Source: Octopus vulgaris
Lineage: Eukaryota
Length of the DNA: 64,000 bases
NCBI GenBank assembly: GCA_951406725.2
Contig: OX597819.1
Location: forward strand, 74,214,001-74,278,000
Direction: 5' to 3'
Within the stretch, counting starts at the first letter, position 1, and each line of letters begins with the position of its first letter. The notes below the pieces were generated by a model that saw nothing but the letters and a program-made list of their open reading frames with translations, was not told where the DNA came from and made no database searches. Of the stretch, positions 1,323 through 47,118 are shown one piece after another. Made by a program: the position numbers and the translations under genes.

Positions 1323-1332
1323 AGTTATTCAT
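1323..1332 (-). CDS. Exon 1 of a fourth paralog (gene D); the rest would lie left of the window
   Basis: ATGAATAACT|gtaagt with paralogous promoter (TATA 1435-1442) and intron-1 sequence down to ~770. Confidence 0.65.
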
Positions 1333-1404
1333 TTTGTGTGACTTTTCGTTATGAGAATGATTTTGAGAGAACGTCAAGTTGTAGTTCCTTTGCTTGTTAC
1401 GAAT

Positions 1405-1632
1405 TATTGTGTTTAAGTGACGATGGAATATCGGCTTATATAGTGGTTTTAGCAGTGATAGGTTTGAAAAATCCCATTCTATGTGATGGCCTTCATGAAG
1501 CTGGAAGATATCATCTTCCTTTATCTATTATTTAAATTTAGTTTACGAAAATTGCTCGCTTTCATTTCTGGCGGAAGTTGAAGCTTGTGCTAATATTTTA
1601 CTTTCAGTGTGACAGATTTAGGTTTACGGGAA
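1405..1632 (-). promoter_or_regulatory. Gene D proximal promoter
   Basis: TATATAAG 1435-1442, variant kB GGGATTTTTC 1466-1475, TTCCCGTAA 1624-1632. Confidence 0.6.
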
Positions 1633-1921
1633 GAGGAAAGCTTTTATGAATGAACTATTTTTATCACAGTATATAGGTCACAGTCCAATTGCTAGTAGGT
1701 TACTTTCGCTTATCGGGAAATAACCGAGCGGGAAATAGTGAGTTACAGTTTCATGTTACAAATCGTTGTTACTATCGCCGTCGCCAACGTCTTCGTCGTC
1801 ATTATCATTATCATCATCATGTGTATCATCTCCATCAATATAAGAATATGGCAAGAACAGAAACCTACGACTAGATGATAGTTATGACGACGAGAATCAA
1901 CCTAACAGACTGTTTATGGAA

Positions 1922-2135: not shown

Positions 2136-4159
2136 CGTCACAGACACGTGTAAATTAAACGTAACTGTGAAGGAGATTCAGTAATTTAAAGAATGTGATA
2201 AGGCTGACCTCTTCTGAATTGCAGGTACAACTCATCAGTTATGACTCAAGAATGGCAAATATATAGACATTCACCAATGAGACTCTCTCAATCCTTTCTT
2301 TGAAGCACAAACGTAAAGGACTTGGTCTTCAAAAGTTCAACCATCAACACCATGCGTCAACCAAAAATCCTCAAGAAATATTTAGAAAGGATAAACTCAC
2401 TTATCCATCACCTATCCGAATTTTCCGTAAAAACCTGTAGAGATAGCTGTTGCAGAATATGAATTAGGCCAAGTTACAACCTCTTAGAAATATCCGAGAG
2501 ATAAAGTCGGATATTAATTGTGAAACAAGAAATCTCATATGTTACATAATCTGGCCTAGTCTTTAGAAATACTACATTGGTTAAACCGGAATCTCCTTGG
2601 GTGAAAGAGAGAACATACACACACATTATTCTTCACTTAAAAGACAATCCAATATATTTTTGAAAAATTGAGGAGCATTTTATAAAAGTAAGTTCTCCAA
2701 AATTAACTTTGCTTTAAAAAACAATAATGAACAAAAGAGAAAATATTTATTTTTTACCTCGGTCTCGAAATATTTCTTAAGAGCTGAAAACGACTCTAAA
2801 CTGAAAAACTTTCCGTTTCTCTTCCATGCTTACCTTTTCTTTTTATTGCTTTTTTTTTTGAAGGTTTGGTGAAACGGGATTTTGACATTTTCACTTCTAC
2901 TCTCAACGATTTCTTTCTAGTTCTGCTACTCGTTTTTTCATTATACACATATTAGTAGGAGAATTGTATGTATGTGTGTGTTTGTGTTTGTGTGTGTGTG
3001 TGTATGTGTGTGTGTATGTCTATGTCTATGTGTGAGTGTGTGTTTGAGTGTGTGTGTGTGTGTGTGTGTGATTATATATCACCTGACCATGTCCACGCCT
3101 GCACCCGTATATCCACATCCCTACATAGACACCATGTACATCATAAAAATCGCTTGCTTTTTCATTTTATCACGGGGCCTTTTTGAACGTGGATGTAATT
3201 TTCTCTCCTTCATATTCCACATCATATTCCACATCAGCTATCTCAACAAGCATTTGCAGAAAAAAATAAAGAAAACAAATCAGGAGTGACTTTCAGCCTT
3301 GTTAGGTATCTCTTGAGAGCCTTAGGTTGATGCTTTTGAGGACCAGGTCCTTTCTCTTCGTGCTTCGAAATGTGGATGTATTCTCTCGCCATATCGCGGT
3401 CCGCCTATCGGGTTTATTATTTAAGCTTACGATGAATCCCCTGTGATGTTGTTTTGCATGTATAATAAAATAAATATGTACAAATTATAAGATCAGTAGA
3501 AAAATAGTATACAGTACGGTATTGTTTCTACTACGCAGATTTTCACCTATAGCGTAGGGTTTTAGAACGTAAAACCCACAATAGTTGCGGGATTCCTGCA
3601 TATATATATATGGAAGAATACGATTGACACGCAAATGCATGCGTACTGGAGTCAGGCACGGAAATATTTCGCTGGAGCCCATCATAAATATCCTTTTCAT
3701 CATGCTTATCCTTCTTGTTCCCGTTGTGCTTTGTCATCGATGTCGCCGTCATCGTCATCACCATCATCATCACCACCAGCATACACTGGTGTTAAGTTTT
3801 TGTATATACCAATTTACATATTAAACGCATTTCTGGGGCTGGAATGCAAATATTAATGAATTGTGTAGGCCCGTGTTATTTCGTTATGCATAACGTGCCT
3901 ACAAATCGCTTATAATGCCTATATAGTTTCATCCAGATACCGTATATTACTATGAGGTCATTAATATTTGTGCACCGATATATTCTGAAGCATAAATAAT
4001 CTGGAGCGTCTACCTTTTAGTAAAATGTTGGTTAGAGCAAGGATTCTCTCAGCTCTCCCACTTCTTCTTAGATGAATGCCCAAGAATTATCAGAATGTAG
4101 ACACGGAGCCGGTAAGGTGACAGAATCAGAAGCACTTTGGACAAAATGCTTAGCCACCC

Positions 4160-5050
4160 AGCAATGTTGATGACCCAGTAGTGTTCATTATCCAGCAGTG
4201 TTCACTATGTTGTGTTCATACGAATCACAATTCAGTAATGATTACTATCCAACAGCGTTCATTATCCAACATTGTTCATAGCCCCAAGAATTTACCGTTC
4301 ATCTGCGTTCACAATCTAAGAATCTTACTATTTTACAGAGTATATAACTGAATACTGTTCATTATCCAACAGTTTCTATTAAGCAACAGTATTTATTTTC
4401 TAACATCTAATAGAGATCCTCATCTAATGCTGTTCACGACCCAACAATGTTCACTATTCTACAGTGTTTATTACCCAACACTGTTTACTAACGAACAGCA
4501 TTCAATGTTCAAGACAGACCACTATCCAACAGGGATCATTTTCCAAGAATGTCTATTCATGTTATTCAATATTTAAATACGTACATTCTCCAAGAGTCTC
4601 CGCTGCATATCTGTGTTCACTGATAAACTCAGTCCACCAACCTGCGACGTTCATTATCCGCCAGTGTTCACTATCTTGTTTCCTAACAAGCTACGTTCAT
4701 CATGAATCAGTGTTCACCACAAACCAATGCCCATTATCTAACGTTATTTACAATCCTAAAGCATTCATTATCTAACATTTCTCACAATCCAACAACGTAC
4801 ATTATACAACAATGTTAACCATCCTACGTTGCTCGTTATCTAACAGTGTCTACTTTGCTACAATGCTCATTGTCCTGCAGTGTTCACAATCCAATAGTGT
4901 TACCTATCAGTCAGTCTCATTACCAGATAGTGTACATCATCTAACAGAGCTCACCATCGTACTCTGTTTACTATCGCACAATGTTCATTATCCAGCCATG
5001 TTCGTCACCAATATTTGTGATTTCATGATATTCATTATCCAGAAGTATTC
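4160..5050. repeat. Degenerate ~17-20 bp minisatellite (core CAGTGTTCATTATCCAA); copies at ~28870-29750, inverted ~46040-46920, partial ~16830-17005
   Basis: Recurrent gtgttcattatcca / tgttcactat units. Confidence 0.7.
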
Positions 5051-6406
5051 ATTGTATACTGGATGTGAACATCTTTCTCATATATTCTTCATCAAATTCC
5101 CATTCTTACATATTACAGGACATTATCTCAATCTCTCTCGTAATTCCAATCATTCACAAATTTTGTCCCGTTTTAGCTTCCGACTTGTTCTAATTCAATG
5201 CGCTGCAGCACTGTCACTCGATTTGAGTTGAAAATGATTGTCATGAAGAGGGCATTTTTTGAGTTATTTTCATATAAAAATCGAAGAGAGCTGGTCAGAT
5301 AAGCGTCATGATATATAAAAGTGGAAATTTTCATTAATTTTCATTTAGAAAATAAAAAGAAAACACATTTTCTTGGATAGTTTTATTTCGTAAAGAGGAA
5401 AAATTTCCTGCGAATTAAGTCCAGGCATTGCCAAACGTGGCAACGAGATGGCACAAAAAACCTCTCGCATGGGATTACTAGATACTGACGCTTCTTGTCA
5501 ATCATACATTCCCGCACGGTGAGAGTTCAAACGGAACACAAGTCTCAGTCTTCAAATTTCGAGTTTAGGCCAGAATTTCAAGAAATGGACGAATTAATTG
5601 ATAAGTACACATATATTTCTAGGAATGAATTCGCTAAGCGGAGCTATAGAAATCTTCTAAAGAACAAAATTAGTATGGAATCGTCGTATCGAGAAAGTTG
5701 TTTATTTCCTCTCGCTGTTTTGACAACGCGTGGGGAGCGACGTCCGAAGTTTACCGTGCGGATATTCTCTGACATGTAAAAATTGTTTATCTTCGAGAAA
5801 TATTGGTGAAATGGCACCAAAGATTATCATTTTATATTATTAAAGCCCGACGTGATGGGTTTTTCCCATTCTGAATACAGTCGCATTATTTGTCGTAGGG
5901 TATACGTTTTCACAAGTAAGGCCGATTCGTTTTCCATTTGTTTTCTTTCTTCTCTCTTTCTCTCTCCTACTGACAAGTTCGCTGTTAAAAGATATTTCTA
6001 TTTTAATATCGTACTTATCTCTTTGTCTATGCTGTCTTCCTATCTCTCTCTCTCTCTCTTTCTCTCTCTCTCCCTTACACACACACACACACTCATTCTC
6101 ACAATCGCGCGCACTCACACAAACAGACTAATGTAATACATATGTGTTTCTTGTGTTCTTTTACTTATTACTCTCATTATTTTGCCTTTAGTCGAGCAAA
6201 TCGAACGCAGGACTTATTCTTTGCAAGCCTATTATTTAGGCCTATTGCCGAATCGCTAGCTAACGGGGTCGTAAACACACCAACATCAGTTGTCAAGCAA
6301 TGGTTTGGGGAGAAACACACAGAAAAATTCATACATACATACATACTTACATACATACATACATACATACATAAAATATATATATATATGTTTACATCTG
6401 CACACA

Positions 6407-9251: not shown

Positions 9252-14068
<4,817 letters not shown>

Positions 14069-14139
14069 TTTGTGTGACTTTTCGTTATGAGAAAGGTTTT
14101 GAGAGAACGTCAAGTTGTAGTTCCTTTGCTTGTTACGAA

Positions 14140-14370
14140 TTATTGTGTTTAAGTGACGATGGAATATCGGCTTATATAGTGGTTTTAGCAGTGATAGATT
14201 TGGAAAATCCCATTCTATGTGATGGCCTTCACGAATCTGGAAGATATCATTTTCCTTTCCGTATTGTTTAGATTTAGTTTACGAAAATTGCTCGCTTTCA
14301 TTTCTGGCGGAAGTTGAAGCTTGTACTAATATTTTACTTTCAGTGTGACAAAGATTTAGGTTTACGGGAA
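14140..14370 (-). promoter_or_regulatory. Gene A proximal promoter: TATA, kB and STAT motifs
   Basis: On the minus strand: TATATAAG 14171-14178, GGGATTTTCC 14202-14211, TTCCCGTAA 14362-14370, Inr-like TCACTT 14151-14156. Confidence 0.7.
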
Positions 14371-15189
14371 GAGGAAAGCTTTTATGAATGAACAATTTTT
14401 ATCACAGTATATAGGTCACTGTCCAATTGCTAGTAGGTTACTTTCGCTTCACGGGAAATAACCGAGCGGGAAATAGTGCGTTACAGTTTCATGTTAGAAA
14501 TCGTTGTTACTATCGACGTCGCCAATGGCGTCGTCCTCATCATCATCTCCATCATCATCTTCACCACCACCACAACCACCAGAACCACCACCACCACCAC
14601 CATCACCACCAACACCACCACCACCACCACCACCACCACCACCACCACCACCACCATCACCCCCACCACCACCTCCACCATCACCACCACCAGAGTGAGA
14701 TAACGAAACCAATCACTCAGACCTCGTATAACTCCCTCAATCACAACTCACATACATTCAGAAATCAAAGGTGTAATATCCCAAAAAACGAATACACGAA
14801 CTATTGAAAATAATTTACAACCAACAATACCGACAGTCACAAATGGAGAAATGTTCTTACGAGGAGGGGAAGGAGGAGGAGGAATGAGATACGAAACAGA
14901 AAAAACAGCATCAATATAAGTATATGGCAAGAACAGAGACCTAGGACTAGATAATAAAAATCCTTGTTGCAAGCGCCTGGTTCTCCGTCGGTTATGACGA
15001 CGAGTGTTCCAGATGATACAATCAAACGAACAGAGTGTTCATGAAATTAACGTGCATGCGGCTGAGTACTCCACAGACACGTACACTTAACGTAATTCTG
15101 AAGGAGATTCAGTATGATTTAGAATGCGGTATGGCTGACCCCTACTGAATTGCGGAAACAACACAACAGTTATAACTCAGGAATAGCAA

Positions 15190-15560: not shown

Positions 15561-17112
15561 TATCCCGACCAAAGGGAAATCCCACTTAGTGAAAATTAAC
15601 TAATTTGCGATAACAAATTTATTTTTTTCCTGTTTTATTTTTTTCCTTAAGAGACAATCCAATACATATTTTAAAAATTGAGAAGTATTTTTTAAAGATA
15701 AATTCTCCAAAATTAACTTTGCTTTAAAAGACTATATATCACGGGACAATGTCCACGCCTACACTCGCATATCCACGCCCGTACATAGACACCATGTACA
15801 TCATGAAAATCGCTTGCGTTTTCATTTTATCACGGGACCTTTTTGTACGTGGATGTAATTTTCTCTCCTTCATATTCCACATCATATTCCACATCAGCTA
15901 TCTCAACAAGCATTTGCAGAAAAAATAAAGAAAACAAATCAGGAGTGAATTTCAGCCTTGTTAGGTATCTCTTGAGATCCTTAGGTTGATGCTTTTGAGG
16001 ACCAGGTCCTTTCTCTTCGTGCTTTGAAATGTGGATGTATTCTCTCGCCATATCGCGGTCCGCCTATCGGGTTTATTATTTAAGCTTACGATGAATCCCC
16101 TGTGATGTTGTTTTGCATGTATAATAAAATAAATATATACAAATTATAAGATTAGTAGAAAAATAGTATACAGTACGGTATTGTTTCTACTACGCAGATT
16201 TTCACCTATAGCGTAGGGTTTTAAAACATAAAACCCACAATAGTTGCGGGATTGCTGCATATATATATATATATGGAAGAATACGATTGACACGCAAATG
16301 CATGCGGACTGGAGTCAGGTACGGAAATATTTCGCTGGAACCCATCATAAATATCCTTTTCATCATGCTTATCCTTCTTGTTCCCGTTGTGCTTTGTCAA
16401 CGATGTCGCCGTCATCGTCATCACCATCATCATCCCCACCAACATACGCTGGTGTCAAGTTTTTGTATATACTAATTTACATATTAAATGCATTTCTGGG
16501 GCTGGAATGCAAATATTAATAAATTGTGTAGGCCCGCGTTATTTCGTTATGCATAACGTGCCTACAAGTCGCTTATAGTGCCTATGTAGTTTCATCCAGA
16601 TACCGTATATTACTATGAGGTCATTAATATTTGTGCACCGATATATTCTGAAGCATAAATAATCTGGAGCGTCTACCTTTTAGTAAAATATTGGTTAGAG
16701 CAAGGATTCTCTCAGCTCTCTCACTTCTTCTTAGATGAATGAATGCCCAAGAATTATCATACTGTAGACACGAAACCGGTAAGCTGACAGAATCAGAAGC
16801 ACTTTGGACAAAATGCTTAGCCATCCAGCAATGTTGATGACCCAGTAGTGTTCATTATCCAGCAGTGTTCACTATGTTGTGTTCATACGAATCACAATTC
16901 AGTAATGATTACTATCCAACAGCGTTCATTATCCAACATTGTTCATAGCCCCAAAGAATTTACCGTTCATCTGCGTTCACAATCTAAGAATCTTACTATT
17001 TTACAGCGATGGTTTGGGGACAAACACACAGAGAAAAATTGGTACATACATACATACATACATACATACATACATACATACATGCATACATATATACACA
17101 CACACACACATA

Positions 17113-21661: not shown

Positions 21662-26113
<4,452 letters not shown>

Positions 26114-26184
26114 TTTGTGTGACTTTTCGTTATGAGAAAGGTTTTGAGAGAACGTCAAGTTGTAGTTCCTTTGCTTGTTACGAA

Positions 26185-26415
26185 TTATTGTGTTTAAGTG
26201 ACGATGGAATATCGGCTTATATAGTGGTTTTAGCAGTGATAGATTTGGAAAATCCCATTCTATGTGATGGCCTTCACGAAGCTGGAAGATATCATTTTCC
26301 TTTCCGTATTGTTTAGATTTAGTTTACGAAAATTGCTCGCTTTTATTTCTGGCGGAAGTTGAAGCTTGTACTAATATTTTACTTTCAGTGTGACAGAGAT
26401 TTAGGTTTACGGGAA
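26185..26415 (-). promoter_or_regulatory. Gene B proximal promoter
   Basis: TATATAAG 26216-26223, GGGATTTTCC 26247-26256, TTCCCGTAA 26407-26415. Confidence 0.7.
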
Positions 26416-29400
26416 GAGGAAAGCTTTTATGAATGAACAATTTTTATAACAGTATATAGGTCACAGTCCAATTGCTAGTAGGTTACTTTCGCTTAACGGG
26501 AAATAACCGAGCGGGAAATAGTGCGTTACAGTTTCATGTTAGAAATCGTTGTTACTATCGACGTCGCCAATGGCGTCGTCCTCATCATCATCTCCATCAT
26601 CATCTTCACCACCACCACAACCACCAGAACCACCACCACCACCACCATCACCACCAACACCACCACCACCACCACCAACACCACCACCACCACCACCACC
26701 ACCATCACCCCCACCACCACCTCCACCATCACCACCACCAGAGTGAGATAACGAAACCAATCACTCAGACCTCGTATAACTCCCTCAATCACAACTCACA
26801 TACATTCAGAAATCAAAGGTGTAATATCCCAAAAAACGAATACACGAACTATTGAAAATAATTTACAACCAACAATACCGACAGTCACAAATGGAGAAAT
26901 GTTCTTACGAGGAGAGGAAGGAGGAGGAGGAAGGAGATACGAAACAGAAAAAACAGCATCAATATAAGTATATGGCAAGAACAGAGACCTAGGACAAGAT
27001 AATAAAAATCCTTGTTGCAAGCGCCTGGTTCTCCGTCGGTTATGACGACGAGTGTTCCAGATGATACAATCAAACGAACAGAGTGTTCATGAAATTAACG
27101 TGCATGCGGCTGAGTACTCCACAGACACATGTACACTTAACGTAATTCTGAAGGAGATTCAGTATGATTTAGAATGCGGTATGGCTGACCCCTACTGAAT
27201 TGCGGAAACAACACAACAGTTATAACTCAGGAATAGCAAACATATAGACATTCACCAATGTGACTCTCCCAATCCTTTCTTCGAAGCACAAACGTAAAGG
27301 ATTTGGTCTTCAAAAGCCCAACCATCAACACCATGCGTCAACCAAAAATCCTCAAGAAATAATTAGAAACGATAAACTCACTTATCCACCACCACCCAGA
27401 ATTTTCCGTAAAAACCTGTGGAAATAGCTGATACAGAATTTGAATTAGGCAAAGTTACAACCACTTAGAAATATCCGAGAGATAAAGACGGATATTAATT
27501 GCGAAACAAGAAATCTCTTATGTTACGTAATCTGGTCTAGTCTTAAGGGAAACTACATTGGTTAAACCGGAATCTTCTTGGGTGAAAGAGAGAACATACA
27601 CACACTTTATCCCGACCAAAGGGAAATCCCACTTAGTGAAAATTAACTAATTTGCGATAACAAATTTTTTTTTTCCTGTTTCTCTTTGCTTAAGAGACAA
27701 TCCAATACATATTTTAAAAATTGAGAAGTATTTTTTAAAAATAAATTCTCCAAAATTAACTTTGCTTTAAAAGACTATATATCACAGGACAATGTCCACG
27801 CCTACACTCGCATATCCACGCCCGTACATAGACACCATGTACATCATGAAAATCGCTTGCGTTTTCATTTTATCACGGGGCCTTTTTGTACGTGGATGTA
27901 ATTTTCTCTCCTTCATATTCCACATCATATTCCACATCAGCTATCTCAACAAGCATTTGCAGAAAAAAAAATAAAGAAAACAAATCAGGAGTGAATTTCA
28001 GCCTTGTTAGGTATCTCTTGAGATCCTTAGGTTGATCCTTTTGAGGACCAGGTCCTTTCTCTTCGTGCTTCGAAATGTGGATGTATTCTCTCGCCATATC
28101 GCGGTCCGCCTATCGGGTTTATTATTTAAGCTTACGATGAATCCCCTGTGATGTTGTTTTGCATGTATAATAAAATAAATATATACAAATTATAAGATTA
28201 GTAGAAAAATAGTATACAGTACGGTATTTTTCTACTACGCAGATTTTCACCTATAGCGTAGGGTTTTAGAACCTAAAACCCACAATAGTTGCGGGATTGC
28301 TGCATGTATATATATATATGGAAGAATACGAGTGAAACGCAAATGCATGCGGACTGGAGTCAGGTACGGAAATATTTCGCTGGAGCCCATCATAAATATA
28401 CTTTTCATCATGCTTATCCTTCTTGTTCCCGTTGTGCTTTGTCAACGATGTCGCCGTCATCGTCATCACCATCATCATCCCCACCAACATACGCTGGTGT
28501 CAAGTTTTTGTATATACTAATTTACATATTAAACGCATTTCTGGGGCTGGAATGCAAATATTAATAAATTGTGTAGGCCCCCGTTATTTCGTTATGCATA
28601 ACGTGCCTACAAGTCGCTTATAGTGCCTATGTAGTTTCATCCAGATACCGTATATTACTATGAGGTCATTAATATTTATGCACCGATATATTCTGAAGCA
28701 TAAGTAATCTGAAGCGTCTACCTTTTAGTAAAATATTGGTTAGAGCAAGGATTCTCTCAGCTCTCCCACTTCTTCTTAGATGAATGAATGCCCAAGAATT
28801 ATCATACTGTAGACACGAAACCGGTAAGCTGACAGAATCAGAAGCACTTTGGACAAAATTCTTAGCCACCCGGCAATTTTGATGACCCAGTAGTGTTCAT
28901 TATCCAGCAGTGTTCACTATGTTGTGTTCATACGAATCACAATTCAGTAATGATTACTATCCAACAGCGTTCATTATCCAACATTGTTCATAGCCCCAAA
29001 GAATTTACCGTTCATCTGCGTTCACAATCTAAGAATCTTACTATTTTACAGCGTATATAACTGAATACTGTTCATTATCCAACAGTTTCTATTAAGCAAC
29101 AGTATTTATTTTCTAACATCTAATAGAGATCCTCATATAATGCTGTTCACGACCCAACAATGTTCACTATTCTACAGTGTTTATTACCCAAAACTGTTTA
29201 CTAACGAACAGCATTCAATGTTCAAGACAGACCACTACCCAACAGTGATCATTATCCAAGAATGTCTATTCATGTTGTTCAATATTTAAATACGTACATT
29301 CTCCAAGAGTCTCCGCTGCATATCTGTGTTCACTGACAAACTCAGTCCACCAACCTGCGACGTTCATTATCCGACAGTGTTCACTATCTTGTTTCCTAAC

Positions 29401-31045
29401 AAGCTACGTTCATCATTAATCAGTGTTCACCACAAACCAATGCCCATTATCTAACGTTATTTACAATCCTAAAGCATTCATTATCTCACATTTCTCACAA
29501 TCCAACAACGTACATTATACAACAATGTTAACCATCCTACGTTGCTCGTTATCTAACGGTGTTTACTTGGCTACAATGCTCATTGTCCTGCAGTGTTCAC
29601 AATCCAATAGTGTTACCTATCAGTCAGCCTCATTATCAGATAGTGTACGTCATCTAACAGAGCTCACCATCGTACAATGTTCATTATCCAGCCATGTTCC
29701 TCATCAATGTTTGTGATCTCATGATATTCATTATCCAGAAGTGTTCATTGTATACTGGATGTGATCATCTTTCTCATATATTCTTCATCAAATTCCCATA
29801 CTTACATATTACAGCACATTTTCTCAATCTCTCTCGTAATTCCAATCATTCACAAAGTTTGTCCCGTTTCTGCTTCCGACTTGTTCTAATTCAATGCGCT
29901 GCAGCACTGTCACTCGATTTGAGTTGAAAATGATTGTCATGAAGTGGACATTTTTTTGAGTTATTTTCATATAAAAATCGAAGAGAGCTGGTCAGATAAG
30001 CGTCATGATATATAAAAGTGGAAATTTTCAATAATTTTTATTTAGAAAATATAAAGAAAACACATTTTCTTGAAGAGTCTTACTTCGTAAAGAGGGATAA
30101 TTTCCGGCGAACTAAGTCCAGGCATTGCCAAACGTGGAAACGAGATGGCACAAAAAACCTCTCGCATGGGATTACTAGATACTGACGCTTCTTGTCAATC
30201 ATTCATTCCCGCACGGTGAGAGTTCAAACGGAATACAAGTCTCAGTCTTCAAATTTCGAGTTTAGGCCAGAATTTCAAGAAATGGACGAATTAATTGATA
30301 AGTACACATATATTTCTAGGAATGAATTCGCTAAGCGGAGCTATAGAAATCTTCTAAAGTGCAAAATTAGTAAGGAATCGTCGTATCGAGAACGTTGTTT
30401 ATTTCCTCTCGCTGTTTTGACAACGCGTGGGGAGCGACGTCCGAAGTTTACCGAGCAGATATTCTCTGACATGTAAAAATTGTTTGTCTTCGAGAAATAT
30501 TGGTGAAATGGCACCAAAGTTTATCATTTTGTAATATTGAAGCCCGACGTGATAGGTTTTTCCCATTCTGAATACAGTCGCATTATTTGTCGTAGGGTAT
30601 ATTTTTCACAAGTAAGGCCGATTCGTTTTCCATTTGTTTTCTTTCTTCTCTCTTTCTCTCTCCTACTGACAAGTTCGCTGTTAAAAGATATTTCTATTTT
30701 AATATCGTACTTAGCTCTTAGTCTATGCTGTCTTCCTATCTCCCTCTCTCTTTCTCTCTCTCTCCCTCTCACACACACACACACATTCTCACAACCGCGC
30801 GCACTCACACAAACAGACTAATGTAAAATATATGTGTTTCTTGTGTTCTTTTACTTATTTCTCTCATTATTTTGCCTTTAGTCGAGCAAACGACCGCAGG
30901 ACGCATTCTTTGCAAGCCTATTATTTATTCCTATTGCCGAATCGCTAGCTTCGTAAACACATAAACGTCAGTTGTCAAGCGATAGTTTGGGGACAAACAC
31001 ACAGAAAAATTGATACATACATACATACATACATACATACATACA

Positions 31046-36794: not shown

Positions 36795-41624
<4,830 letters not shown>

Positions 41625-41694
41625 TTTGTGTGACTTTTCGTTATGAGAATGGTTTTGAGAGAACGTCAAGTTGTAGTTCCTTTGCTTCTTGCGA

Positions 41695-41926
41695 ATTATT
41701 GTGTCTATGTGACGATAGAAACTCGGCTTATATAGTGGTTTTAGCAGTGATAGATTTGGAAAATCCCATTCTATGTGATGGCCTTCACAAAGCTGGAAGA
41801 TATCATCTTCCTTTCCGTATTTTTAAAATTTAGTTTACGAAAATTGCTCGCTTTCATTTCTGGCGGAAGTTGAAGCTTGTGCTAATATTTTACTTTCAGT
41901 GAGACAGAGATTTAGGTTTACGGGAA
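41695..41926 (-). promoter_or_regulatory. Gene C proximal promoter
   Basis: TATATAAG 41727-41734, GGGATTTTCC 41758-41767, TTCCCGTAA 41918-41926. Confidence 0.65.
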
Positions 41927-43468
41927 GAGGAAAGCTTTTATGAATGAACTATTTTTATCACAGTATATAGGTCACAGTCCAATTGCTAGTGGGTTACTTT
42001 CGCTTAACGGGAGGTAATCGAGCAGGGAATAGTGAGTTACAGTTTAATGTTACAAATCGTTGTTACTCTCGCCGTCGCCAATGTCGTCGTCGTCATTATC
42101 ATCTCCATCATCATCTTCACCGCCACCACCATCATCACCACCACACCCACCATCATCACCACAACCACAACCACCACCACCACCATCACCACCACCAGAG
42201 TGAGATAACGAAACCAATCACTCCCTCAATCACAACTCACATACTTTCAGAAATCAAGGGTCTAATATCCCAAAAAACGAATACACGAACTATTGAAAAT
42301 AATTTACAACCAACAATACCGACAGTCACAAATGGAGAAATGTGCTTAGGAGGAGGGGATGGGGAGGAGGAAAGGGAGGTGAAACAGAAGAAACGGCATC
42401 AATATAAGAATATGGCAAGAACAGAAACCTACGACTAGATAATAGAAATCCTTATTGCAAGCGGCCTGGTTCTCCGTTGGTTATGTCGACGAGTGTTCCA
42501 GATGATACAATCAAACGAACAGAATGCTCATGAAATTAACGTGCAAGCGGCTGAGTACTACACAGACACATGTACACTTAACGTAATTCTGAAGGAGAGT
42601 CAATATGATATAGAATGCGGTAAGGCTGACCCCTACTGAATTGCAGGAACAACTCAACAGTTATGACTCAGGAATAGCAAACATAAAGACATTCACCAAT
42701 GTGACTCTCCCAATCCTTTCTTCGAAGCACAAACGTAAAGGACTTGGTCTTCAAAAGCCCAACCATCTACACCATGCATCAACCAAAAATCGTCAAGAAA
42801 TAATTAGAAACGATAAACTCACTTATCCATCACCTCCCCGAATTTTCCGTAAATCCTGTGGAAATAGCTAATACAGAATTCGAATTAGGCAAAGTTACAA
42901 CCACTTAGAAATATCCGAGAGATAAAGACGGATATTAATTGCGAAACAAGAAATCTCTTATGTTACATAATCTGGTCTAGTCTTAAGGAAAACTACATTG
43001 GTTAAACCGGAATCTCCTTGGGTAAAAGATAGAACATACACACACTTTATCCCGACCAAAGGGAAATCCCACTTAGTGAAAATGAACTAATTTGCGATAA
43101 CAAGTTTATTTTTTTCCTGTTTGTCTTTGCTTAAGAGACAATCCAAAATATTTTTTTAAAAATTGAGAAGTATTTTTTAAAAATATATTGTCCACAATTA
43201 ACTTTGCTTTAAAAGACAATAATGAAAATATTTTTTTTACCTCCGTCTCGAAATATTTTTTAAGGAGAGATGAAAACGACTCTAAACTGAAGAACTTTTC
43301 GTTTCTCTTCCATATTTCTCTTCCATATTCACGTTTTCTTTTTATAATTTTTAGTGAAGGTTCAGTGAAACGGGACTTTGACATTTTCACTTCTACTCTC
43401 AACAATTTCTTTCTAGTTTTGCTACTCGTTTATTCATTTTACACATATTAGTAGGAATATTGTATGTA

Positions 43469-44756: not shown

Positions 44757-45722
44757 TATGTGTGTGTGTATTTTTGTGAGTGTGTATGTGTGACTATATA
44801 ACACCGGACCATGTCCACGCATATCCACGCCCATACATAGACACCATGTACATCATAAAAATTGTTTCCTTTTTCATTTTATCACGAGACCTTTTTGTAC
44901 GTGGATGTAATTTTCTTGCCTTCACATTCCACATCATATTCCACATCAGCTATCTCAACAAGCATTTGCAGAAAAAAAGAAAAGAAATCAGGAGTGTTTT
45001 CAAGTGAATTTCACCCTTGTTAGGTATCTCTTGAAAGCCTTAGGTTGATGCTTTTGAGGACTAGGTCCTTTCTTTTCGTGCTTCGAAATGTGGATGTAAT
45101 CTCTCGCCATATCGCGGTCCGCCTATCGGGTTTATTGTTTAAGCTTACGATGATTACCCTGTGGTGTTGTTTTGTATGTATGATAAACATTTATATACAA
45201 ACTGTAAATTTTAGTAGAAAAATAGTATACAGTACGGTATTGTTTCTACTACGCAGATTTTCACCTATCGCGAAAGTTTTGCAACGTTAAAAACAAACGT
45301 TGGGGGTTTGCTGCATATATATATGGAAGAATACGATTGACACGCAAACGCATGCGTACTTGAGTCAAGCACGGAAATATTTCGCTGGAGCCCATCATAA
45401 ATATCTTTTTCATCATCCTTGTCCTTCTCCTTCCCGTTTTGCTTTGTCAACGATGTCGCCGTCATCGTCATCACTATCATCATCTCCACCAGCATACAGT
45501 TGTGTTAATTTATTCGATATACCAATTTACGTATTAAACGCATTCCTGTGGCTGAAATGTAGATATTAATGATTTGTGTAGGCACGTGCTATTTCGTTAT
45601 GCATAACGTGCCTACAAGCCGCTAATAGTACCTATGTAGTTTCATCCAGATACCGTATATCTCTAGGAGGTCATTAATATTTCTGCAACGATATATTAAG
45701 AAGCATAAATAATCTGGAGCGT

Positions 45723-47118
45723 CTTTATATTTTCTAAATGAAAATAAATGATAAATTTCCACTTTTATATATCATGACGCTCATCTTACCAACTCACATC
45801 GCTATTTATATGAAAATAACGCAAAAAAATGTCTACTTTATGACAATCATTTTCAACTCAAATCGAGTGACAGTGCTGCAGCCCATTGAATTAAAACAAG
45901 TCGGAAGCTAAAACGGGACAAAATTTGTGAATGATTGGAATTACGAGAGAGATTGAGAGAATGCGCTGTAAGATGTAAGTATGGGAATTTGACGAAGAAT
46001 ATATGAGTAGGATGTTCACATCCAGTATACAATGAATACTTCCGGATAATGAATAGCATGAGATCACAAACATTGATGAGGAACATGGCTGGATAATGAA
46101 CATTGTACGATAGTAAACAGAGTATGATGGCGAGCTCTGTTAGATAATATACACTATTTGATAGTGAGACTGACTGATAGGTAACACTATTGGATTGTGA
46201 ACACTGTTGGATGGTGAACACTGCTGGGCAATGAGCGTTGTAGCAAAGTAAACACTGTTAGATAACGAGCAATGTAGGATGGTTAACATTGTTGTATAAT
46301 GTACGTTGTTGGAGTGTGAGAAATGTCAGATAATGAATGCTTTAGGATTGTAAATAATGCTGGTTTTTGGTGATTAATGATGAACATAGCTTGTTAGGAA
46401 ACAAGATAGTGAACACTGTTGTAGAATGAACGTCGCAGGCTGGTGGACTGAGTTTGTCAGTGAACACAGATATGCAACGGAAATTCTTGTATAATGTACG
46501 TAGTTAAGTATGGAACAACGTGAATAGACATTGTTGGAAAATGATCACTGTTGGGTAATGATCTCTTTTGGACATTAAATGCTGTTCGTTAGTAAACAGT
46601 GTTGGGTAATACACACTATAGAATAGTGAACACTGTTGGGTAGTGAACAGTATTAGATGGGTATGTCGGTTAGACGTTAAAAAATAAATACTGTTGCTTA
46701 ATAGAAACTGTTGGATAATGAACAGTGCTCAGTTATATACACTGTAAAATGGTAAGATTCTTTGATGGTGAACGCAGATGAACGGTAAAATCTTTGGGAC
46801 TATGAGCAGTGTTGGATAATGAACGCTGTTGGATAGTAATCATTACTGAATTGTGATTCGCACGAACACAATATAGTGAACACTGCTGGATAATGAACAC
46901 TACTGGGTCATCAACATTGCTGGGCGGCTAAGCAATTTGTCGAAAGTGCTTCTGATTCTGTCAGCTTACCGGTTCCGTGACTACATTCTGATAATTCTTG
47001 GGCATTCATCTACGAAGAAGTGGGAGAGTTGAGAGAATATTTGCTCTAACCAACATTTTACTAAAAGGTAGAGGCTCCAGATTATTTATGCTTCAGAATA
47101 TATCGGTGTAGAAATATT
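45723..47118 (-). other. 1.4 kb inversion within unit IV
   Basis: Reverse complement of ~3963-5358 and ~28670-30056 (ORF 45853..46221 minus corresponds to 4812..5231 plus). Confidence 0.92.

Follow-up and report, generated by a model that had tools for sequence, protein, structure and literature searches.

Does the DNA just above an Octopus vulgaris gene act as a cytokine-style inducible promoter, as a preliminary description had proposed from a TATA box accompanied by NF-kB-, STAT- and IRF-like words, and which of these words are likely to matter? The stretch of DNA that was analysed (64,000 nucleotides, G000:C6:74214001-74278000, here called the window) lies at the end of a gene array and contains a 12-15 kb unit in four copies, the promoter at issue belonging to the second (gene copy 2). 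Motif positions, exon joints in RNA contigs, open 230-residue frames, the array itself and two Rel-domain genes were observed directly. On balance, we favor the reading that this is the TATA promoter of an array gene with a likely secreted product of IL-6/gp130 type, and that its transcription is likely induced by NF-kB.

Gene model, transcripts and array

Gene copy 2 comprises five exons on the minus strand, all with AG/GT ends and with intron phases of 1-0-0-0, that together form an open frame of 230 aa. Exon 1 (14059..14160, minus) carries the 5' leader and the first 10 coding nucleotides (ATG AAT AAC T, with the ATG at 14068), ending at a phase-1 GTAAGT donor; exon 2 (12393..12550, minus) encodes a signal-like segment and the predicted helix A, exon 3 (11161..11295, minus) the A-B loop with a mini-helix, exon 4 (10798..11028, minus) helix B, a cysteine-rich B-C loop and helix C, and the coding part of exon 5 (9252..9410, minus) the C-D loop, helix D and the stop. 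This frame agrees in length and N-terminus with two named O. sinensis proteins, P0006 and P0007; the predicted O. vulgaris proteins of the family are truncated or fused, and all named homologues are listed as 'uncharacterized'. Old paralogues comprise four coding blocks and a short first exon. A hairpin-like inverted repeat occupies 9756-9975 in intron 4 of copy 2.

Seven of the 24 listed runs, none of which is recorded as RNA, were compared. Four RNA-like runs from three studies, placed on a paralogue, displayed GT..AG joints at intron 2 (one run), intron 3 (one run) and intron 4 (three runs). A 160-nt contig of run X3 consists of 58 letters of exon 2 preceded by 102 others, of which the 30 nearest the joint derive from exon 1. 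Assuming no indels, it extends to about 14160, a point below the TATA box that is 18 bp from its first T rather than about 30, and 5-15 bp above the start that had been predicted earlier (14145-14155); since contigs cannot show starts, this end near 14160 is only a hint. Transcription of copy 2 likely starts between 14146 and 14160. Run X1 yielded an unspliced contig across the promoter and intron 1 and thus behaves as DNA, and run X2 had no contig on the promoter. In one contig of run X6, exon 2 is instead preceded by another upstream exon; an exon-like piece at G000:C6:74296372-74296400 (L036, minus strand), with a donor at its end, resembles this exon and, in view of its in-frame stop, would represent read-through or a non-coding alternative leader. 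With spliced joints in RNA contigs and an open 230-aa frame below the TATA box, the proposal that the words belong to the promoter of a real gene was borne out, and the stretch is very probably the TATA promoter of a spliced gene.

A query with this promoter returned 40 matches, all at 73.98-74.26 Mb of the array contig. The array has 30 exon-1 copies, 27 of which chain to five exons (one of these only across an assembly gap); 22 frames are intact at 693 nt (18 distinct) and four are frameshifted, including that of window copy 4. Within the window, copy 1 is represented by its promoter and exon 1 (1323..1732, minus), with exons 2-5 outside at G000:C6:74209845-74212550 and an open frame; copy 3 with its promoter (21662..26515, minus) has an open frame of 230 aa; and copy 4 with its promoter (36795..42026, minus) is broken in exon 4, with three stops. 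The frameshifted exon 4 of this broken copy lies at 38073-38300, and all its promoter motifs are retained exactly. Many array copies are paired head to head at a distance of about 2-3 kb. Two mirror blocks (39.3 kb at 99.1% and 20.8 kb at 99.5%, G000:C6:74064921-74202782) may be real palindromes or uncollapsed haplotypes; because both end at the only assembly gap (74181958-74182057), up to nine copies are perhaps assembly duplicates, giving a range of 21-30 copies. Over the 22 intact frames, 18 of them distinct, a crude estimate of pN/pS was 0.39.

Five old paralogues, about 28-40% identical (via named orthologues), lie at 71.09, 74.30, 124.01, 124.77 and 131.35 Mb of the array contig. Older family members were seen at 71.08-71.17, 74.30, 109.76, 124.01, 124.77 and 131.35 Mb, all on this one chromosome-sized contig, and two of them, at 71.145 and 71.166 Mb, combine a stop within the match to exon 4 with tandem repetition of the last exon region. 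Homologues occur in O. bimaculoides, Argonauta hians and Sepia pharaonis. Names were checked for 10 of 23 representative matches: two carried none, and the others all belonged to cephalopods, without any link by sequence to a protein from outside that group. At three further loci, i.e. L035 (G000:C6:74282342-74286632), L004 (74047579-74049585) and L001 (74017307-74019392), we located exons 2-5 but neither an exon 1 nor a promoter belonging to them. The 3' UTRs of most array copies contain several ATTTA and one to three TTATTTAWW words, which could be AU-rich instability elements, although the DNA is AT-rich in any case. A 1.4-kb intergenic segment is inverted in copy 4 (45722-47118 vs. 3963-5360 and 28671-30057).

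The predicted product

The N-terminus of the protein is signal-like, with an 11-residue hydropathy of 2.62 at residues 8-18. A second structural model, built with 16 sequences, had a pLDDT of 84.6, a pTM of 0.79 and helices at 32-59, 97-129, 153-176 and 201-229; a first model with four sequences led to the same structural families. In VIA, the top matches were ties between IL-11 (Z 15.3, rmsd 2.7, 153 aligned), LIF (15.2), CLCF1 (15.1) and IL-6 (14.9), with rmsd of 2.7-3.4 for these superpositions, and all 27 rows at a Z of at least 8 were helical cytokines, the first unrelated row reaching 7.8. Across the vertebrate IL-6/gp130 family (IL-11, LIF, CLCF1, IL-6, CNTF, IL-27p28 and OSM) and G-CSF, 139-162 residues were matched at Z 13-15, to be read with the caveat of the structure tool that a Z near 13-14 is possible for helical bundles; identity in the structural alignments was 8-18%. 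Foldseek placed G-CSF and LIF first, with weak E-values (best 0.021). The Atlas order began with unnamed arthropod, mollusc and chordate clusters, followed by IL-6-like, IL-12a, LIF and G-CSF at 0.90-0.91; an unnamed, mainly molluscan cluster has 114 members, with PF00489 on 11% of them. The paralogue P0012 gave a similar Atlas list, with the PRF family (PF06875) among its neighbors, and a structural match to cardiotrophin-1 (TM 0.65/0.71). None of four proteins had a cytokine match in Pfam, PF00489 (IL6) included, and a profile search of solved-structure sequences gave 0 matches.

At 230 aa and with a predicted signal peptide at its N-terminus, the protein falls within the 150-280 aa of long-chain class I cytokines; four long helices of the predicted model superpose on IL-6-family structures at Z 14.9-15.3, and of the introns between its five exons one lies in the signal segment and three in the domain. 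Vertebrate IL-6-type cytokine genes have the intron phases 1-0-0-0. In common with the IL-6/gp130 family, the octopus gene has a hydrophobic N-terminus, four long helices, five exons and a first intron in the signal segment, but it lacks detectable sequence similarity and has a long B-C loop with four cysteines, a feature not known from vertebrate members. The cysteines are C57 and C68 after helix A, followed by C130, C140, C146 and C159 in the B-C region, and the IL-6 arrangement of four cysteines in two disulfides near helix A and the A-B loop is absent. Unlike the single gene of the vertebrate family, the octopus gene is present in 21-30 tandem or head-to-head copies, and it is not linked to TOMM7, the Tom7 match being on C27 and the array on C6; coleoid genomes are heavily rearranged, so this linkage is a weak test. 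Judged by IL-6 cysteines, TOMM7 linkage and PF00489, all of them absent, the protein is not an IL-6 orthologue. A preprint on lamprey IL-6 follows the same logic of discovery, i.e. length, signal peptide, four-helix model, structural match, and five exons with an intron in the signal peptide; jawless-vertebrate IL-6 keeps the IL-6 cysteines and synteny, whereas the octopus family does not (PMC13081863).

The cytokine reading of the preliminary description has thus gained a predicted long-chain helical fold for which gp130-family structures are the best matches. Signal peptide and cytokine fold are both model predictions; from these, we hold with considerable confidence that the product is a long-chain helical cytokine of IL-6/gp130 type, and the octopus protein is likely, as modeled, a member of the long-chain class I cytokines. 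Among receptor domains, PF09240 and PF25552 had no match and PF06328, PF09067 and PF17971 had only weak matches under the cut-off; two receptor candidates (L063, L107) were inspected and found unconvincing. A search with PF02864 (STAT) gave no match, which is uninformative on the presence of STAT.

Promoter words, background and paralogues

All promoter motifs of gene copy 2 lie on the minus strand (14171-14449), a strand that the preliminary description had not given. The TATA box TATATAAG (14178-14171, minus), 110 bp upstream of the ATG, fits TATAWAWR upstream of a spliced first exon and recurs in the other window copies at 1435-1442, 26216-26223 and 41727-41734 (minus). Exactly 23 bp separate it, as had been stated, from the proximal kB site GGGATTTTCC (14211-14202, minus), which is exact at 26247-26256 and 41758-41767 and reads GGGATTTTTC in copy 1 (1466-1475). 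The STAT-like word TTCCCGTAA (14370-14362, minus), a weak candidate, is 183 bp upstream of TATA, close to the approximately 185 bp given before, and the IRF-like word AAGCGAAA (14449-14442, minus), at chance level, sits where it had been placed (near 14441-14450). A GATA-like word, CTATCA (TGATAG on the plus strand; 14192-14197, minus), lies 4 bp below the proximal kB site and an ETS-like word, ACTTCCG (14308-14314, minus), at -136 from TATA. A second strict kB site, GGGAAATCCC / GGGATTTCCC (15574-15583, no strand assigned), had been overlooked; it lies 1,405 bp upstream of TATA, with counterparts about 1.4 kb upstream at 27621-27630 and 43061-43070 and none in copy 1, so that 3 of the 4 window copies have it, and it sits in a spacer common to most head-to-head pairs of the wider array.

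The contention that the motifs are conserved in all four copies stood for the TATA box and the STAT word but not for the kB decamer (exact in 3/4); the IRF word, assigned only to some copies, was in all four. Column by column, the four window promoters are 97% alike, so motifs shared among them are no test of function; the earlier caution about young duplicates was well placed, and we dropped this conservation as evidence. TATA-like words also occur 122-195 bp before the ATG in old paralogues A, B and D. A TATA box with a proximal kB site is a common layout, and the promoter layout alone is ordinary.

To place the kB words against a background, we used 399.9 kb of genome DNA in 40 evenly placed 10-kb stretches, in which strict GGGRNWYYCC occurs 11 times (0.0275/kb), giving P of about 0.002 in 60 bp and 0.008 in 300 bp. 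None of 1,348 TATA-like words in this DNA had a strict kB site within 60 bp and 7 had one within 300 bp, and 1.1% of 20,000 dinucleotide shuffles of the 300-bp promoter contained one; being rare in both genome background and shuffles, the proximal site is above chance. Two other backgrounds were set aside, one (9 in 329.6 kb) because it took in paralogue promoters and the other (1 in 239.6 kb), chosen after their removal, because it was biased low.

Conservation was assessed in the 30 exon-1 copies minus one with a replaced promoter and, after removal of the two oldest, in 27 young copies. The proximal GGGATTTTCC is exact in 26 of these, with 1 change vs. 4.3 expected; compared with its flanks this is not significant, as 11.6% of windows were as good, or 44% with the two oldest copies added. 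ACTTCCG is exact in 26 of 29 promoters and is not significantly more conserved than its flanks, nor is any promoter motif among the paralogues. The two oldest array copies (about 80% alike) differ at the kB site, one reading AGGATTTTCC and the other having lost it by deletion with the frame still open; window copy 1, with both kB sites gone and no strict kB within 2 kb upstream, is likewise open. The GATA-like word was caught by pattern in 27 of 28 kB-TATA spacers and is missing from the two oldest array copies. In insect immune promoters, Rel and GATA sites are known to occur linked to each other.

Beyond the array, none of five old paralogues has the kB-23bp-TATA layout; motif conservation, the check that had been proposed, lends the promoter words no clear support among paralogues. 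Within 3 kb of their ATGs, these five have 3 strict kB sites vs. 0.41-0.57 expected (P 0.009-0.017, four distances having been tried); the excess is not significant at 1 kb (1 vs. 0.14, P 0.13), and within 6 kb two of five sites are arms of an inverted repeat. A/B and C1/C2 being related pairs, which limits this count, we read the excess as modest. Several promoter variants, for the most part 90-99% alike, occur in runs X13 and X14, which come from other organisms; in one X13 contig, from a relative too close to test conservation, none of the 10 differences falls within 14140-14231, and a metagenome scan for distant promoters found 0 loci. Two Rel-homology genes in the same genome have an intact recognition loop (RFRYQCE and RFRYKCE). 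A near-kB word, CGGATTTTCC (plus strand, 13598-13609), lies in intron 1 of the window copies and recurs 650-990 bp upstream of several further copies of the array, a pattern suggestive of local rearrangement.

The decamer is, as had been noted, that of the human IL6 kB element, which two papers give as GGGATTTTCCCA (PMC3783445; also PMC5389554). In both promoters, the identical decamer stands close above the start of a gene with an IL-6-like fold (predicted, in octopus), and the position is similar, not identical: about -63 to -54 in octopus if the start is 30 bp below TATA, -73 to -62 in human IL6 (PMC3783445). The octopus site is the 10-mer followed by A rather than the longer IL6 word; the likeness is one 10-bp word, easily recurring by convergence, and homology is not implied. 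On these grounds, the proximal kB site is probably functional, and NF-kB control of the promoter is likely as far as sequence can tell.

The STAT and IRF words fared worse. With 2 exact occurrences in 399.9 kb, TTCCCGTAA is a rare word, and it is retained in an old copy at G000:C6:73985355, yet no more than 12 of 27 young copies have it unchanged (TTTCCGTAA replacing it in 9 and TTCGCGTAA in 6), its 4 changes vs. 3.8 expected being the background rate. Shuffles of the 300-bp promoter yielded a high-affinity-type STAT word in 4.6% and any TTC-N3-(G/T)AA word in 44%, so the word appears borderline vs. chance, depending on how the motif is defined. It ends in TAA and thus departs from the TTC-N3-GAA palindrome of GAS/SIE; we take it to equal the m67 variant only. 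STAT5/6 prefer TTC-N3/4-GAA over the m67 word. According to a survey, invertebrate STATs group with STAT5/6 (PMC13203501). Old paralogue A has TTCCCGTAA at -858 and -3413 from the ATG, and paralogue B has TTTCCGGAA at -711. The IRF-like pattern AANNGAAA occurs in 47% of shuffles, and AAGCGAAA has a single core in place of the tandem GAAA cores of an IRF-E/ISRE. From these counts, we consider it unlikely that the STAT site works and very much doubt that the IRF site does; both words are likely passengers, and neither the STAT feedback nor the IRF input first proposed found support.

Mechanism, rival readings and meaning

Most likely, infection or injury would free a Rel dimer to bind the kB site 23 bp above TATA, perhaps aided by the GATA word and the distal kB; with this distal site common to head-to-head pairs, many copies may fire together, and the secreted protein would signal via a Domeless/gp130-type receptor to JAK-STAT. 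Beyond the words in the DNA and the splicing seen in RNA, each step is a prediction or an inference.

The kB word may instead be a passenger in a real TATA promoter of a cytokine-fold gene, the product being a constitutive or gland-specific secreted protein amplified for dose, with growth, reproductive or pheromone-like co-option of the array, as with salamander cytokine-derived proteins. Cytokine co-option in reproductive tissues is reportedly the subject of a preprint on salamanders, the PRF family is among the Atlas neighbors of P0012, no motif is significantly more conserved than its flanks, and open-frame copies without a strict kB exist, as do old paralogues without the kB-TATA layout. 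We regard this as rather unlikely in the face of two strict kB sites per unit, one of them adjoining TATA, vs. 0.0275/kb in the background, together with the mild kB excess upstream of old paralogues and a pN/pS of 0.39 with no diversifying signal. The full model of the preliminary description, in which NF-kB induction is joined by STAT positive feedback via TTCCCGTAA and by IRF input, is distinctly less likely: the rarity of the word, its retention in the old copy and its recurrence upstream of paralogues A and B keep the idea of feedback alive at low odds, against its turnover at the background rate, the ease with which shuffles produce STAT- and IRF-like words, and the STAT5/6 grouping of invertebrate STATs.

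That the protein is an unrelated secreted helical bundle, with cytokine likeness and kB word both coincidence, seems highly improbable. No sequence-level cytokine link was found by Pfam or the solved-structure profile search, and identity in the structural alignments is low, as this would have it; against it, the 27 best structural rows are all helical cytokines with gp130-family members leading, a language-model search agrees with the cytokine fold, and IL-6 genes share the plan of five exons with one intron inside the signal segment.

Within the reading that we favor, of an NF-kB-induced array gene for a cytokine-type protein, a close invertebrate parallel would be Unpaired of Drosophila. 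Upd3 is induced by infection and wounding. In a 2026 survey that includes O. bimaculoides and O. sinensis, Unpaired 1-3 are ligands of the gp130-like receptor Domeless, and molluscs have IL6R, JAK and STAT and no IL-6-family ligand (PMC13203501); such a ligand role is a candidate one for the octopus protein. Interferons fit the octopus model less well (Z about 10) than long-chain class I cytokines do (Z about 15). An oyster IL-12p35-like protein has reportedly been described, a molluscan helical-cytokine candidate. Another is oyster CgIFNLP, class II helical cytokine-like (PMC9756803); with oyster candidates known, the octopus family is not the first molluscan claim. A paper on the O. vulgaris haemocyte transcriptome lists IL-17 and growth factors under cytokines (PMC4199593), and the family gene ids had 0 occurrences in one supplement file of PMC12607849. 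Literature searches, their coverage excluding subscription journals and bioRxiv supplements that may hold expression data, found no description of the family.

We tentatively put forward, as a possibility about which we remain somewhat doubtful, that coleoids own an IL-6/gp130-type cytokine family comprising the missing ligands of molluscan IL6R/Domeless-JAK-STAT, and that in Octopus one member has grown into a cluster of 20-30 genes, interferon-like, which NF-kB would switch on jointly by way of an IL6-type kB site and of the kB spacers that head-to-head pairs share. If true, the relay from NF-kB via a helical cytokine to STAT, along with the five-exon cytokine gene, would predate the protostome/deuterostome split. 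The gene family and the array matter more than the motifs. The locus supplies named candidate ligands, a corrected gene model and a 40-bp promoter element, which make the question of the mollusc ligand directly testable, and the family may offer a marker of inflammation, wounding or regeneration for cephalopod biology and aquaculture.
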